This document shows, piece by piece, positions 3,456 through 19,771 of a stretch of DNA of 32,789 nucleotides (position 1 is its first letter; every line of letters begins with the position of its first letter). The position numbers and the translations under genes are program-made. This stretch comes from Candidatus Eiseniibacteriota bacterium. Its GTDB lineage: Bacteria; Eisenbacteria; RBG-16-71-46. The notes under the pieces are model-generated. The model ran no database searches and was not told where the DNA came from. It saw only the letters and a list, made by a program, of their open reading frames with translations. The stretch spans positions 1-32,789 of the forward strand of contig JANLOX010000227.1 in the NCBI GenBank assembly GCA_031366795.1, given 5' to 3'.

Positions 3456-4601
3456 ATGCCCGCTGAAGTCTTCGCTCCGGGCGAATTCATCCGCGAGGAG
3501 ATCGAGTCCCGCGGGTGGACGCAGGAGACGCTGGCCGAAGTCCTGGGAAAATCGGCGCGGTTGGTGAACGAGATCCTCACCGCCCGACGGAGCATTACAC
3601 CGGAGACTGCCAGCGCTCTGGCCGAAGCGTTTGGCACCACTGCGGAGCTCTGGCTGAACCTCGAAAGCGCCTACCAGCTCTCCAAGATTTCCGGCGACGG
3701 CGGCACGGTTGCGAGGAGGTCCAAGCTCTATAGCAAGGCGCCTGTGAACGATATGGTCAAACGCCGGTGGATTGAGCGCTCTGACGATATCGATGTGCTC
3801 GAGCAGCGCGTCGCCGATTTCTTTGGCCTCGAGAATATTGAGGATGCAATCGAGCTGATTCCCCACGCAGCCCGTAAGTCCACGTCGTACGAATCCGTGC
3901 ATCCCGCCGTGTGCGCATGGCTCACGATGGCTCGCAGGCTGGCGACGCGGGTGTCGGCAGTTACCTTCAGCGAGGCACGGTTGAAGGAAGCCCTGATCGC
4001 CCTTCGAGCCCTGCTCGGTTCCGCAATCGAAACTCGACGGGTCTCGGCCGTACTCGCCAAGGCGGGCGTCCGCCTCGTGATTGTCGAACAACTTCCCCAG
4101 AGCAAGGTCGACGGCGCAGCGTTCTGGCTTGATGGCGCCGGTAAACAGCCAGTCGTTGCGTTATCGCTGCGATACGATCGAATTGACTGCTTCTGGTTCA
4201 CGTTGGTCCACGAACTCATGCATATCGCGTACGGAGATGGATTGCAGGGTAAGGCTGACTTTGCGGGCTACGACTTCGACTTGGTCGGGCACGGCGCTCG
4301 AACAAGTTCCGCGCCTGCCGGCATCGAGAGGGAGCGCAACCAGCAAGCGGCTGCGTACATCGTTCCCCCGCAGGATCTCGACGGATTCATCGCCCGCGAA
4401 GGCCCCCGCTTTTCGAAGCGTCAGATTGTCGAATTCGCCACTTCCCAAGGGTTGCATCCGGGCCTTGTGGTAGGACAGCTTCACTATCGCGGCGCACTCT
4501 CATGGGCTCAGAATCGCGTCCTGCTTGAACGAATCCGCCAGCACGTCACCGCAACTGCGATAACGGATGGCTGGGGATACTCGAGTCGCCCGGCAAGCTA
4601 A
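3456..4601 (+). CDS. higA: HigA-family XRE HTH antitoxin fused to an ImmA/IrrE-like metallopeptidase domain
   Basis: PGEFIREEIESRGWTQETLAE...ITPETA...WLNLESAY HTH; C-terminal LSLRYDRIDCFWFTLVHELMH (HExxH). Confidence 0.88.
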   Translation: MPAEVFAPGEFIREEIESRGWTQETLAEVLGKSARLVNEILTARRSITPETASALAEAFGTTAELWLNLESAYQLSKISGDGGTVARRSKLYSKAPVNDMVKRRWIERSDDIDVLEQRVADFFGLENIEDAIELIPHAARKSTSYESVHPAVCAWLTMARRLATRVSAVTFSEARLKEALIALRALLGSAIETRRVSAVLAKAGVRLVIVEQLPQSKVDGAAFWLDGAGKQPVVALSLRYDRIDCFWFTLVHELMHIAYGDGLQGKADFAGYDFDLVGHGARTSSAPAGIERERNQQAAAYIVPPQDLDGFIAREGPRFSKRQIVEFATSQGLHPGLVVGQLHYRGALSWAQNRVLLERIRQHVTATAITDGWGYSSRPAS

Positions 4602-4780
4602 TCCGGTCTGACGCCCCCCCGGCCAAGACTGGGCGCCGCAGCCAGAATGTTGGCCGTGCCTCGCATGTGACTCTGCCTGCAGCCTGGCGGGACGCAGCGG
4701 GAAGTGCTTCGAGTCGTGTGACTTCACACCCACGACTACCCCCCGCCACGCATGGCACCCGTCTTGCGGATTGTCCCACC

Positions 4781-15580: not shown

Positions 15581-16746
15581 GCGCCGCGCCCGGCGATCTT
15601 CGCTATGCCGGAGCCGGGACCGCCGCTCCACCGGCGTGCGCCGAACATCGACAGGTCGTGACGCGTGCTGCCCTCGACGATGAGATCGGAGATCGCCTCG
15701 CCGATCGCCGGAGCGAACTTGAAGCCATGGCCCGAGCATGCGCTCACGACGATCGCCTGCGGCGAATCGGGGTGGCGGTCGAGCACAAAGTGCCCATCCG
15801 GCGTGTTCGTGTACATGCACACCGCGGTGGACATCAAGGGACCACTCGCGAACGGCATGTAATCCTGCACCAGCCGCCGGCATTCGGCGACCTCGGCAGG
15901 CGTGACGGTGCGATCGAGGGCATCCGGGTTCGCCGGCAGGCCCTCCCCATGAATCGCCACCTTCACGCCCATTTCCGCGCGCGGGAAGCTGTAGAAGAAC
16001 CGCTCGGGCGCGTGCTCCCAGATCGAGATCGGGCACCAGCCCGAATCATGCGCCGTGCGCGCGCCGACGGGCTCGAACCAGAACAGCACCTGGCGCGTCA
16101 CGCTCAAGGGCAATTCCGGCAGCAATTGCGGCATCCACGCCCCGGCGGACAACACGCAGGCGCCGGCGTGGATCTCGTCACGCGTGGTGCGCACCGTGAC
16201 GCCCCCGCCATCGGCTCGCCACGACAGCGCCGGCTCGTTGGTGTGCAGCGCCGCGCCATGGCGCGTGGCACTCGCCAGCATGGCGGCGATCCCCGCTTCG
16301 GGCCGCAGCACGCCATCGTTGGGCTCGTACACACCGACCCAATCGGCGCGCGGCCTGAACGCGGGCACGCGCCGGGCTATCCCTTCGGCGTCGAGTACTT
16401 CGTGCGGCAGGGCGTGCGCCTCGGCGCTGGCCAGGGCCCCGCGCACCAGCGAGCCCTCCCGCGCCCCGATCATCAGCCCGCCGGTTCGCGACAGGAGCGG
16501 GCGCGCGGCCTCGCGTTCGATTTCCTCCCACAACAGGTAGGCGCGCTGCACCAGCGGCACGTAGGCCGGATGCTCGTAGTAGGCCTCGCGAATGATGCGC
16601 GTGTCGCCGTGGGAAGAGCCGAGCGCGTGCGGCGGTGCGAAGCGGTCGAGCCCGATCACGCGCAACCCGCGCCGCGACAGCGCGCGCGCGGCAGCGGAAC
16701 CCATGGCGCCGAGCCCGACGATGACGACATCCGCGCTACGGGGCAT
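15577..16746 (-). CDS. solA: N-methyl-L-tryptophan oxidase / monomeric sarcosine oxidase family
   Basis: VGLGAMGS, GSSHGDTRIIR, CMYTNTPDGHF (covalent-FAD Cys), CSGHGFKFAP. Confidence 0.92.
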   Translation of the reverse strand: MPRSADVVIVGLGAMGSAAARALSRRGLRVIGLDRFAPPHALGSSHGDTRIIREAYYEHPAYVPLVQRAYLLWEEIEREAARPLLSRTGGLMIGAREGSLVRGALASAEAHALPHEVLDAEGIARRVPAFRPRADWVGVYEPNDGVLRPEAGIAAMLASATRHGAALHTNEPALSWRADGGGVTVRTTRDEIHAGACVLSAGAWMPQLLPELPLSVTRQVLFWFEPVGARTAHDSGWCPISIWEHAPERFFYSFPRAEMGVKVAIHGEGLPANPDALDRTVTPAEVAECRRLVQDYMPFASGPLMSTAVCMYTNTPDGHFVLDRHPDSPQAIVVSACSGHGFKFAPAIGEAISDLIVEGSTRHDLSMFGARRWSGGPGSGIAKIAGRGA

Positions 16747-17497
16747 GCGGCTCCAGTGGGGTGAGGGTGGCGGCTGTGTGCGCCTGTGCCGCCAAATCGG
16801 CGGCTTCGCTCTCGTACACGCGCCACGCGAGATCGCCCGAATGGAGGTCCATCAGGCAGTGGATCAACATCGATGCGTACAGCGAACCGGTGAGAAAGTA
16901 GATCGCCGCCAGGAATGCGCCGAGCAGGCCGGTGACGACGACGCCACGCGCGCCCTGGTAGGCATGACCGAAGCCGAACGCCACCGCGGTGACGAGGCCT
17001 GCGCCCCACCATGGCAGCGCGTGCGAAAAATACCAGATGAGGTAGCCGCGATAGAGCAACTCCTCGCAAATGCCCGCCGTCAGGGCGAGCCAGGCGAAGG
17101 TCTTGAATTCGTCGCGCGTGTGTGGCAGCACGAGGCGGATGTTGTCGAGGTGCTCGCGCAGCTCCCGCCGCCCTTCGGGGTCGGCCAGAGCCTCGCGGCG
17201 CTGGCGGATCATCACCACGATGATGATGGCGAGCCCGACAACCACGCCCAGCAGACCTGCGCCGGCGCGAAGCTCAAGCCCGAGGGTCGCGAGCGAACGC
17301 CGCGTCGCCCACCACACCAGCGCCACCGCGATCACACGCGCGACCTGGGCGAACATCGAGCCGCGGTACGCCTTGAGGCGGACGCGCGGCAGATCATGAC
17401 TGGCGGCGTTCTGGAATCGCTTGAGCCCAATCACGCCGCTGCGCAACGGTCCCACGACGACCAGGAACACGGCAAGCAGGTGATCGATCAGGCTCAT
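16736..17497 (-). CDS. CPBP (CAAX/Abi) family intramembrane metalloprotease
   Basis: AGICEELLYRG, FGFGHAYQG, H-xxx-D (IHCLMD). Confidence 0.92.
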   Translation of the reverse strand: MSLIDHLLAVFLVVVGPLRSGVIGLKRFQNAASHDLPRVRLKAYRGSMFAQVARVIAVALVWWATRRSLATLGLELRAGAGLLGVVVGLAIIIVVMIRQRREALADPEGRRELREHLDNIRLVLPHTRDEFKTFAWLALTAGICEELLYRGYLIWYFSHALPWWGAGLVTAVAFGFGHAYQGARGVVVTGLLGAFLAAIYFLTGSLYASMLIHCLMDLHSGDLAWRVYESEAADLAAQAHTAATLTPLEPHAP

Positions 17498-17566: not shown

Positions 17567-17601
17567 AAAGCGAAACGGCCACCTCCGTGAGGAAGTGACC
17601 G
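17567..17601 (-). terminator. Intrinsic terminator
   Basis: Minus strand CGGTCACTTCC-TCAC-GGAGGTGGCCG (11-bp stem with G-U pairs) followed by TTTCGCTTT. Confidence 0.65.
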
Positions 17602-17757
17602 CTCGAATCCGTCCCGCGTCGTCTCATCCTTAAGAACACTCTGGCCTGGAACGAAGCCTCCCTGGCGTCCGTCCGATGATTCGCAAATGACGTTTGGGCT
17701 TGGCCTGAGTGAAACCGGTCATGGGTCTCATCGGCGGAACGGCGAACTTTCGTTCGC
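17567..17757 (-). ncRNA. Candidate sigma54-dependent structured small RNA or 5' leader (~190 nt)
   Basis: Bounded by a sigma54 promoter and a terminator. 5' hairpin GCGAAC-GAAA-GTTCGC, long stem 17728-17741 with 17666-17679, five ANGGA motifs. Confidence 0.5.
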
Positions 17758-17766
17758 GTGGATGAA

Positions 17767-17782
17767 CGCAAGCCCAATGCCA
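17767..17782 (-). promoter_or_regulatory. Sigma54 -24/-12 promoter
   Basis: TGGCATTGGGCTTGCG = GG-N10-GC with TGGCA and TTGC cores; predicted +1 near 17756-17757. Confidence 0.65.
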
Positions 17783-17864
17783 CGCGACGCGTCAGCCGGG
17801 AGACGTTGCGAGTACGTCAGTTGCGTGCAGGCGCCGCACGCACCGGGCGTCCCAGGGAATGGAG

Positions 17865-17901
17865 GGACGGCCAGAACTGGTCCCCGGACGGCCAAAATGG
17901 G
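17865..17901. promoter_or_regulatory. Tandem direct repeat, candidate upstream activator sequence for a bacterial enhancer-binding protein
   Basis: GGACGGCCAGAACTGG (17865-17880) and GGACGGCCAAAATGGG (17886-17901), 21-bp period, about -110 to -145 from the predicted +1. Confidence 0.45.
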
Positions 17902-17963: not shown

Positions 17964-19583
17964 CTAGTCGCGGCGCATCAACAGCAGCGTGATGTCGTCG
18001 GTCCGCCGCGCGCCGGCCATGAAGGTGTCGACACCCTCCAGCACGCGCCGTCCGAGCACGTCGAGCGAAGGCTCGGCCGCGCCGGCCGCGACCAGCTCCA
18101 GCAACCGTTCCTCCTCGAACATCTCGCCGCCGCGGTCCGCCTCGGGTATGCCGTCCGTGAACACCGTGAGCAGGCCGCCGCGCTCGATCGTCGTCTCACC
18201 ACGCTCGAACTTGGCGTCTTCCAACACGCCCACCGGAACGCCGCCGGCCTCGAGCCGCTGGATGACGCCGTTGTGGATCAGCATCGGTAGGTTGTGGCCG
18301 GCATTGACGTAGGTCAGCGCGCCCGTCGCGGGATCGAGCACGCCCACGAACAGCGTGACGAAGCGGCCACGGTCGGTGCTGCGGTGCATGACGGCGTTGA
18401 GCCGCGACACCAGCTCCGCCGGGTCGGCGCAAATGTCATACAGCGTTCGCGAGGAGGACAGCGCGGACGACATCAGCAAAGCGGCGCCCATTCCCTTGCC
18501 CGAGACGTCGCCCAACAGGAACACGATCTTGCCGTCGGCGCGGATATGGAAGTCGTAGAGATCCCCGCCCACTTCGTGGCAGGTCTCGAGGCGCGCGTCG
18601 ATCGCCCAACCGGCGATCGGCGGCGGCTCGGGCAGCAGCGTGCGCTGGATGCGCGTCGCGGTTGCCAATTCCTGGGCCATGCGCTGGCTCTTTTGCTCGG
18701 CTTCGATCAGCCGCGCGTTGGTGATCTTGACCGCCGCCATGTTGGCGAGCAGCGTGAGCACTTCGACGTGCTCGCGGCCGAAGCTGGCGGTCGGATCGAC
18801 GCTGTCGGCATACAACACGCCCAGCACGCGCTCGTTGTCGAACAAGGGCGCCGCCATCGCGGCGTGGATCGACTGGGCAACCACGCTGTGCTGGGCCTTG
18901 AAGCGCGGGTCGACCGCGGCATCGCCGATGACGATCGAGGTGCAGTCCTGGAACACCTTCTCGAGAATGGTGCGCGAGATCGCCAGTGGCTGGCGGCTGC
19001 TGCCGCCGAGCAAGCGCGCCGCGACCTGCTCGGGCTCACCGCCCCCTTCGGGCATCATCAGGATCACGAGGCGCGTCGCCGGCACCGCCTGCTCGACGAT
19101 GCGCAGGATCTCGTCGCAGGTCTCGCGCAGCGGCCGCGGCAGGACCAGCATTCGGCCGGCCTCGACGAGCAGGTGCACGAGCCGGTTGGCGTCGGCGCTG
19201 CTCTGCACACCGCGGGCAAGGATCTCGCGCGCGCCGAGATTCAAGGACGATGACAGTTGCGCGGCGGGCGTGAACACCGTCTTCGCCTCGCCGCCCGGCG
19301 CCGAGACACGCACGAAGATCTTGCCGATTTCGAGCACGTCACCGTCGCGAATCGCGGTCGCCTCGTGCACCTCGATGCCATTGAGCCGCGTGCCGTTGCG
19401 GCTGCCGAGATCGCGGATCGTCACCTTCCCACCGTCGCGAACGACCTCGGCGTGTTCCTTGGAGACCGTAGGGTCGGCGATCTGGATCGCGTTCTGGGAC
19501 GCCCGGCCAATGCGCAGCGCCTCCCGGTCGATAGGGAACGTCCGATGCTCGGGGCCGATCGAAACGACGAGTTGCAGATCCAT
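17964..19583 (-). CDS. FHA-GAF-SpoIIE (PP2C) serine/threonine phosphatase
   Basis: FHA: IGRASQN...VSKEHA...DLGSRNGT. GAF: APLFDNERVLGVLYAD. PP2C: VGGDLYD, GDVSGKG, NAGH, FTDG, DDIT. Extended -10 TGCTATCGT at 19617-19625. Confidence 0.93.
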   Translation of the reverse strand: MDLQLVVSIGPEHRTFPIDREALRIGRASQNAIQIADPTVSKEHAEVVRDGGKVTIRDLGSRNGTRLNGIEVHEATAIRDGDVLEIGKIFVRVSAPGGEAKTVFTPAAQLSSSLNLGAREILARGVQSSADANRLVHLLVEAGRMLVLPRPLRETCDEILRIVEQAVPATRLVILMMPEGGGEPEQVAARLLGGSSRQPLAISRTILEKVFQDCTSIVIGDAAVDPRFKAQHSVVAQSIHAAMAAPLFDNERVLGVLYADSVDPTASFGREHVEVLTLLANMAAVKITNARLIEAEQKSQRMAQELATATRIQRTLLPEPPPIAGWAIDARLETCHEVGGDLYDFHIRADGKIVFLLGDVSGKGMGAALLMSSALSSSRTLYDICADPAELVSRLNAVMHRSTDRGRFVTLFVGVLDPATGALTYVNAGHNLPMLIHNGVIQRLEAGGVPVGVLEDAKFERGETTIERGGLLTVFTDGIPEADRGGEMFEEERLLELVAAGAAEPSLDVLGRRVLEGVDTFMAGARRTDDITLLLMRRD

Positions 19584-19771
19584 GGGGTCAGTCCTAAGGG
19601 TTTGGGGGTGGCCGCGACGATAGCAGGGCCGCCCGGCACCGGCCAGACTGCGCAGACTACCCACGCAGGCTACGAATGCAGGCTACCCACCATTGCCCCG
19701 GCGCCCCCCGCGTGGGAAGCTTGTCCGCACAGCGCCCCGCTGGCCTCATCGCGTTCCCTTCAAGGACACCC

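Follow-up and report, generated by a model that had tools for sequence, protein, structure and literature searches.

Does the 466-bp gap between the gene of a SpoIIE phosphatase and a run of genes beginning with a CPBP protease encode an RNA of its own, and what would such an RNA do? The question arises from an initial annotation of the 32,789-nucleotide stretch of DNA analysed here (“the window”), which placed a complete sigma-54-driven RNA unit on the minus strand inside this gap and suggested that its product might sequester CsrA or serve as an attenuator or riboswitch leader. The neighbours, given as context only, are the FHA-GAF-SpoIIE phosphatase gene upstream (17964..19664, minus strand) and the CPBP/Rce1-like protease gene downstream (16736..17497, minus strand), the first of a CPBP-solA-MATE-oxidoreductase series.

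The host belongs to Candidatus Eisenbacteria, and its genome (G000, 96% complete) was compared with those of two congeners, G001 and G002, the latter being 92% complete. The presence of rpoN and csrA, which the initial annotation had named as a check, was confirmed: the window's genome carries rpoN, about 21 sigma-54 activators (21 strong PF00158 matches of 25) and one csrA (PF02599, 91 bits), and it encodes flagellin-family genes; fliW and hfq were both searched for in this genome and not found. Of the 89 genomes of the family, 83 contain csrA and none contains fliW. The local CsrA has, as read from its sequence, the R44-type arginine in HREE; R44 is described as important in CsrA (PMC7366521).

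Several features of the host genome were noted in passing. In the stretch L001:1501-1924 (G000:C425), the csrA gene (C425:24834) encodes 80 amino acids with an extended C-terminal helix; the gene immediately behind it is small, its product basic, and it matches FlgM weakly and below cut-off (E = 0.032). A sigma-54 activator gene lies about 2 kb from csrA. Elsewhere in the same genome (G000:C471:585-4196), where fliW was not found, a sigma-54 activator gene is divergent from an FlgL-like and a flagellin-family gene. In the window itself, positions 3456-4601 (plus strand) encode a HigA-type HTH antitoxin-like protein fused to an IrrE/ImmA-like peptidase region, the translation having been judged by eye, and a second sigma-54-like motif at 4753-4768 (plus strand), also present in G001 (L178), precedes a glycosyltransferase-like gene.

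Predicted promoter, upstream sites and RNA

Every string quoted in the initial annotation was recovered at its coordinates by a string check. The proposed sigma-54 promoter, TGGCATTGGGCTTGCG at 17782-17767 on the minus strand, is a -24/-12 motif of the form TGGCA-N6-TTGC with the canonical GG-N10-GC spacing, and both elements are kept in G001 as a TGGCAC variant with two spacer changes. We take the TGGCAC of G001 to be closer to the sigma-54 consensus. The similarity found in the metagenome run X7 ends at 17783, which is the edge of the -24 element. Genome-wide, the motif is not enriched (31 sites at spacer 6 vs 22-34 at spacers 3-5 and 7-9), and because the motif alone occurs at chance frequency, support for the promoter rests on its conservation.

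The 21-bp-period repeat described upstream was likewise recovered, as GGACGGCCAGAA at 17865 and GGACGGCCAAAA at 17886; these two direct repeats (GGACGGCCARAA on the plus strand, 17865..17897) lie 109-141 bp upstream of the predicted +1 and form a putative upstream activating sequence (UAS). The repeat has three copies in the whole genome, and its 9-bp core and 21-bp period are kept in G001, making an activator-binding site likely as judged from sequence; at other sigma-54 sites the UAS motif is not enriched (4 vs 3.1 expected). Between the repeats and the promoter lies a conserved block that the initial annotation had missed (17806..17829). It contains two CGCAAC copies 15 bp apart, a spaced pair that is unique in the genome, is identical to G001 at 23 of 24 positions (96%) with flanks at 65%, and is likely a protein-binding site, presumably at an IHF-type position. 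Taken segment by segment, identity to G001 along the upstream spacer runs at 48%, 80% (the repeats), 65%, 96% (17806-17829) and 65%.

Other stretches of DNA recall parts of this arrangement. G000:C45:1239-1265 and G001:C542:309 (L214) resemble the promoter region of the window, the G001 copy preceding a lipoprotein gene with a GGA-bearing leader. A sigma-54-driven cluster in G002 (C95, L157:465-2555), which encodes secreted beta-rich proteins and an FlgD-Ig protein, lies upstream of CPBP, and its own upstream DNA holds one copy of the 9-bp core of the window repeat.

The predicted non-coding RNA of about 190 nt spans 17567..17757 on the minus strand; from the promoter spacing we infer a start at 17756-17757, and its end would fall in the U-rich tail. 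The corresponding 201-nt strand folds better than 200 of 200 shuffles (z = -2.52). In both genomes, the preferred predicted fold comprises a 5' hairpin with GAAA tetraloop, a closing stem, internal hairpins and the terminator. The 5' hairpin, already recognised as GCGAAC-GAAA-GTTCGC (17742..17757), has a pair probability of 0.97-0.98 and is identical in G001, as is an internal hairpin with a 7-nt loop (17710..17730). The closing stem pairs 17741-17734 with 17617-17610 and encloses a multi-branch body (17610..17741), with a pair probability of 0.98-1.0 in both genomes. It displaces the long stem that had been proposed for 17741-17728 and 17679-17666, which is worse by 5.5 kcal/mol in the window and 3.9 in G001 and whose pairs have probabilities below 0.01. 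The 5' half of the RNA (17757-17688) is free of GGA and invariant between G000 and G001, with poorly paired stretches.

Concerning the terminator, there is one terminator-like site (17567..17604, minus strand) with a 14-pair stem (17604-17573) and a broken U-tract, and a single site is not significant alone against shuffles (0.5 +/- 0.8). The changes observed keep the pairing, with U-A replaced by C-G on both sides in run X8, U-G by C-G in G001, X8 and X12, and U-A by U-G in G001, the variants from the runs being single low-depth contigs.

The RNA had been presented as new, and no Rfam family matches it at gathering score; at E <= 10 three matches appear, all unrelated and none of them Csr/Rsm. 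It is not 6S RNA, since the genome's 6S RNA lies elsewhere (C384) and the strand obtains no score against RF00013, and the hammerhead- and c-di-GMP-like resemblances seen by eye have no Rfam support. Reading the GCGAAC-N4-GTTCGC palindrome as a LexA operator was also rejected: CGAAC-N4-GTTCG is not enriched, with 25 sites against 2-41 at other spacers, and what the promoters of lexA and recA show is a different palindrome of the type TGCAC-N4-GTGCA, intact at lexA (G000:C230, L138) and as a degenerate copy at recA (C395, L139). This latter palindrome is likely the Eisenbacteria SOS box and resembles, we assume, the Fibrobacter type.

Conservation and distribution

The predicted RNA (17567-17757) is identical to G001 at 184 of 191 positions (96.3%); in the flanking genes, third codon positions reach 69-80%. 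The difference is strong against third codon positions of the upstream gene (Fisher p = 5e-11) and smaller against all positions of solA (0.019), and the 6S RNA of the same two genomes is 93.5% identical (216/231). Close variants of part of the RNA occur in each of the four metagenome runs examined out of 18 listed, in low-share DNA contigs. The initial annotation had looked to relatives for conservation, and promoter, RNA and terminator are indeed kept in G001 far above neutral sites; this pattern, which includes the pairing of the terminator, is the main reason to believe that the locus specifies a functional sigma-54-driven RNA.

Beyond these two genomes the RNA is rare. A DNA search of 206 genomes of the phylum retrieved full-length homologues in two, G000 and G001, and the covariance model R1 detected the full RNA in the same two among 89 genomes of the family; the 15 weaker places that R1 returned in those 89 were partial or coding, the best of them, in G071, sharing 16 letters and having no -24 element. 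The RNA was not found downstream of the 29 best SpoIIE phosphatase relatives, all of which were covered by an nhmmer scan, and among the loci of 29 CPBP relatives it lies upstream of the gene in G001 only. In G002, whose 6S RNA is 72% identical to that of the window's genome, it is absent at both flanks, and CPBP-solA-MATE is kept behind an unrelated gene cluster. Metagenome scans gave 0 matches and then 7 chance matches, with no true homologue among them, and of 16 matches in a collection of genomes from 185,579 species, 15 were due to chance and one was a true homologue, from Candidatus Eisenbacteria. The distribution is narrow and the RNA lineage-restricted. As a separate observation on the neighbouring gene, in many CPBP relatives (L057-L083) a -10-like hexamer stands some 10 nt ahead of the start codon and a Shine-Dalgarno sequence is missing, a layout that suggests leaderless transcription.

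CsrA-type motifs and the weighing of explanations

The five ANGGA motifs reported for the RNA are present, as ACGGA (17672-17668), AGGGA (17663-17659), AAGGA (17631-17627) and two further ACGGA (17612-17608 and 17588-17584). Of 43,286 windows across the genome, 14 reach five per 191 nt, as do 8 of 5,000 shuffles, whereas the seven plain GGA are unremarkable against shuffles (p = 0.22); since the locus was picked for its GGA content, these enrichment figures are inflated. G001 keeps three ANGGA and five GGA (p about 0.013 when windows are counted in the same way). Those lost are 17612-17608 and 17588-17584, the second being buried in the terminator anyway.

High-affinity CsrA sites are described as ANGGAX hexaloops on a stem and as AGGGA or AAGGA pentaloops (PMC4005645). 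The best site of this type in the RNA is an AAGGAU hexaloop hairpin (17622..17635, minus strand), whose predicted probability rises from 0.65 in the window to 0.99 in G001; its loop (17631-17626) is closed by a U-G pair in the window and by C-G in G001, the C variant being found also in X12. A possible pentaloop site, GCC-AGGGA-GGC (17656..17666, minus strand), is kept in G001, with hairpin probabilities of 0.51 in the window and 0.09 in G001. The predicted closing stem largely pairs the GGAs at 17614 and 17610. The predicted fold thus exposes one robust loop (17629) and one part-time loop (17661), the other sites being largely paired, and a majority of GGAs in hairpin loops or single strands is not seen. 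The genome contains 50 clusters with at least five ANGGA per 200 nt; at least three hairpin-capable motifs occur in two of these, and only the cluster of the window has a sigma-54 motif upstream, a figure that is likewise optimistic given how the locus was chosen.

Taken together, the locus likely encodes a discrete, novel, sigma-54-driven sRNA of about 190 nt, and we consider it rather probable that transcription of this free RNA is activator-gated. That it acts as a low-valency CsrA decoy, titrating through one strong and one part-time loop, is a more tentative reading to which we give slightly less than an even chance. According to it, one activator would bind the 21-bp-period repeat and, on its signal, transcription would start near 17757 and end at about 17570; the RNA would present the AAGGAU hexaloop and, 32 nt upstream, the part-time AGGGA pentaloop, which together could bridge one CsrA dimer, so that CsrA control of GGA-bearing mRNA leaders would be relieved. 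The sequestration proposed in the initial annotation is retained in a reduced form: the genome has csrA, and no fliW was detected in it, but only three of the five ANGGA survive in G001 and one loop is robust. Speaking against a decoy are the absence of GGA from the best-conserved part, the 5' 70 nt, and the single robustly exposed site, where CsrB or RsmZ have far more. The exposed sites are too few for a multivalent sponge of that kind and would fit the two-site binders McaS and GadY, for which two GGA suffice to bind CsrA (PMC7652899). By analogy with McaS or GadY, the 5' half, invariant and without GGA, may serve a further purpose, in stability, protein contact or base-pairing. A recent machine-learning survey expects activity on the B. 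subtilis hag leader from few Eisenbacteria CsrAs; its authors caution that the prediction concerns one assay and does not imply inactivity (PMC13443453). Because the RNA was found full-length in 2 of 206 genomes and not in G002, and csrA is near-universal, it cannot be the family's general CsrA antagonist.

The same RNA could act independently of CsrA, as a free sigma-54-driven sRNA that pairs with mRNAs without Hfq or binds another protein, the GGA being incidental or only protective. The invariant, partly unpaired and GGA-free stretch at 17757-17688 would suit such a role, two ANGGA were lost freely in G001, and NrsZ and CrcZ, like Qrr, GlmY and Pxr, are sigma-54-driven sRNAs that do not titrate CsrA. 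However, hfq was not found in the host, a crude blastn search gave no complementary genome match better than E = 1.8, and the ANGGA excess and the consensus hexaloop would be left unexplained, so that we regard this explanation as unlikely, though it deserves some weight. Far less probable is the absence of any functional transcript: the promoter-like match would have arisen by chance and the hairpin would terminate the phosphatase gene upstream, or the locus would be what is left of a sigma-54 gene since deleted. The chance frequency of the motif, the very narrow distribution and the use of similar hairpins, in other Eisenbacteria (L005-L007), as normal terminators at gene ends agree with it; yet the 190 non-coding bases are as constrained as 6S RNA, the constraint sets in at the -24 element, and the UAS retains its period next to spacer DNA that drifts to 48-65%.

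Two further explanations would tie the RNA to translation or to the downstream genes. As a long 5' leader or attenuator, it would decide whether transcription continues into CPBP-solA-MATE-oxidoreductase, and CsrA might be the ligand that triggers the switch: it is co-oriented and lies 70 nt upstream of CPBP, the broken U-tract makes read-through possible, two mutually exclusive long-range stems lie within 4-5.5 kcal/mol of each other, and a locus in G014 likewise places a sigma-54 motif, a GGA-rich stretch and a hairpin before a phosphoribosyltransferase gene. Opening the terminator would nevertheless cost about 20 kcal/mol with no replacement helix, the sole candidate antiterminator pairing is broken by the change at 17598 in G001, X8 and X12, G002 keeps the operon without the element, none of 28 other CPBP relatives has the RNA upstream, and no Rfam riboswitch matches. 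With neither an antiterminator fold nor a conserved link to the operon, this part of the initial annotation finds little support, and we hold an attenuator to be improbable. Slightly more improbable still is a short mRNA for a 33-residue peptide (17731-17630) or another small ORF, in which the CsrA sites would reflect ordinary regulation. G001 retains the frame and its ATG at 17731, and X11 and X12 show two third-position synonymous changes, but the ORF has no ribosome-binding site, as was noted at the outset, and it is not conserved as a peptide: both G001 substitutions within it are non-synonymous, its stop is lost in G001 and X12, and four of the six changes seen are non-synonymous or stop-removing. 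The GGAs, moreover, lie at the 3' end and not at the start codon.

Related candidates in the phylum and comparison with known systems

The pattern of a promoter followed by two CsrA-type motifs occurs in 12 of 206 genomes, with four matches for the reversed control. Ten new loci were read, and one of them, in G048 (family f3), is non-coding, with nine GGA and a clear terminator with a U-run. This f3 RNA (L206:1501-1690 in G048:C266; L215:1534-1720 in G042:C108) combines a sigma-54 motif with about 150 nt of non-coding sequence, nine GGA (four of them in AGGGA) and a terminator; it is flanked by a NUDIX-like and an NAD synthetase-like gene and is 87-93% conserved, with variation at the N position of ANGGA. 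G042, one of the five f3 genomes searched, keeps promoter, GGAs and terminator and changes an AGGGA to ACGGA at the free N position. The f3 RNA has no match in Rfam and is a cleaner candidate for a Csr sponge than the RNA of the window. The 11 letters of the window's pentaloop site recur in the G048 RNA at nearly the same distance from the promoter, and neither of the models R1 and R2 detects the other's RNA.

A second pattern was found in 45 of 206 genomes (control, 4), and among the 48 loci read, two of them in part, only G048 and G042 represent terminated non-coding units. All others are leaders or the beginnings of coding regions, many of them containing several ANGGA, although Shine-Dalgarno sequences inflate the ANGGA count in leaders; as a search for further decoys, promoter and CsrA-site patterns mostly return such mRNA leaders or coding starts. 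In family f11 (L270, L271, L273-L276) and in G089 (L264), sigma-54-driven leaders of type IV major pilins carry several ANGGA, some of them in hairpins, and these leaders are candidate CsrA targets by analogy with Bacillus flagellin leaders.

Further sigma-54-motif-led elements were recorded. The one at G014:C4:4549 on the minus strand (L180/L163) has about 215 nt of non-coding sequence with eight GGA, one of which forms part of a perfect ACGGAC hexaloop hairpin, and a 15-bp hairpin that precedes a pyrE-like phosphoribosyltransferase gene; it has no Rfam match. Another, of about 130 nt and non-coding, occurs in three genera (G030:C11, L160; G014:C3, L161; G002:C2, L162), with a 5' hairpin, a conserved C-rich tract resembling an anti-Shine-Dalgarno sequence and a closing hairpin. 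It was not found in G000, has no Rfam match and is possibly a family of base-pairing sRNAs. In several genera, a conserved sigma-54 promoter with the common upstream GCAAGTGTCAA precedes a lytic transglycosylase gene (L084-L086, L089, L166, L167, L169). It is possible, if on balance doubtful, that Eisenbacteria control CsrA by sigma-54- and enhancer-driven RNA decoys arising lineage by lineage, comprising the RNA of genus g1, that of G048 and G042 and perhaps the G014 element.

Among known RNAs, the Csr/Rsm sponges of Gammaproteobacteria (CsrB/CsrC, RsmX/Y/Z) resemble the RNA of the window in being free intergenic units with their own promoter and terminator, in their ANGGA excess and in an ANGGAX hexaloop on a short stem, of which the window's RNA has one; its host, moreover, has CsrA and no detectable FliW. 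Unlike them, it shows one to two exposed sites in the predicted fold instead of many, has a long GGA-free 5' half, belongs to the phylum Eisenbacteria with neither an Rfam nor a sequence match, and is predicted to depend on sigma-54 and an enhancer, where for the sponges BarA/GacS-UvrY/GacA control is reported (PMC7366521). Should the decoy reading hold, it would function as a minimal Csr sponge, but we do not file the RNA as one, lacking as it does both exposed multiple sites and an Rfam match. McaS and GadY, base-pairing sRNAs of E. coli that contact CsrA via at least two GGA, share with it few CsrA sites and a conserved non-GGA region; it differs from them in its sigma-54 promoter, in a host in which no Hfq was found and in having no sequence relation.

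With the sigma-54 sRNAs CrcZ/CrcY, NrsZ, Qrr1-5, GlmY and Pxr, the locus shares a -24/-12 promoter and upstream repeats leading to a short terminated RNA, and its conserved spacing, its upstream repeat and the rpoN and activators of its host agree with a sigma-54 sRNA gene, yet none of the covariance models of these sRNAs in Rfam matches it. CrcZ is also a protein sponge, but it titrates Hfq/Crc via A-rich motifs, and Qrr and GlmY need Hfq, which was not found in the window's host. With 6S RNA (RF00013), the window's RNA shares a similar length and a similar conservation between congeners, but it is not a single rod and obtains no score.

An open-access literature search retrieved neither an Eisenbacteria sRNA nor a sigma-54-driven Csr sponge. 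If CsrA binding fails, the RNA would keep a modest interest as a sigma-54 sRNA that is new and comes from a phylum not yet characterised. Antagonism of CsrA is presented as following two mutually exclusive ways, by sRNA mimics or by proteins such as FliW (PMC7366521). For this family, in which CsrA is near-universal and FliW was detected in no genome, the RNA of the window and the f3 RNA are the first concrete candidates for an antagonist that these searches found. If Eisenbacteria do control CsrA by such lineage-specific decoys, they would represent a Csr sponge circuit far outside Gammaproteobacteria, run on sigma-54 instead of GacA/UvrY and acting on sigma-54-transcribed leaders of pilins and surface proteins.
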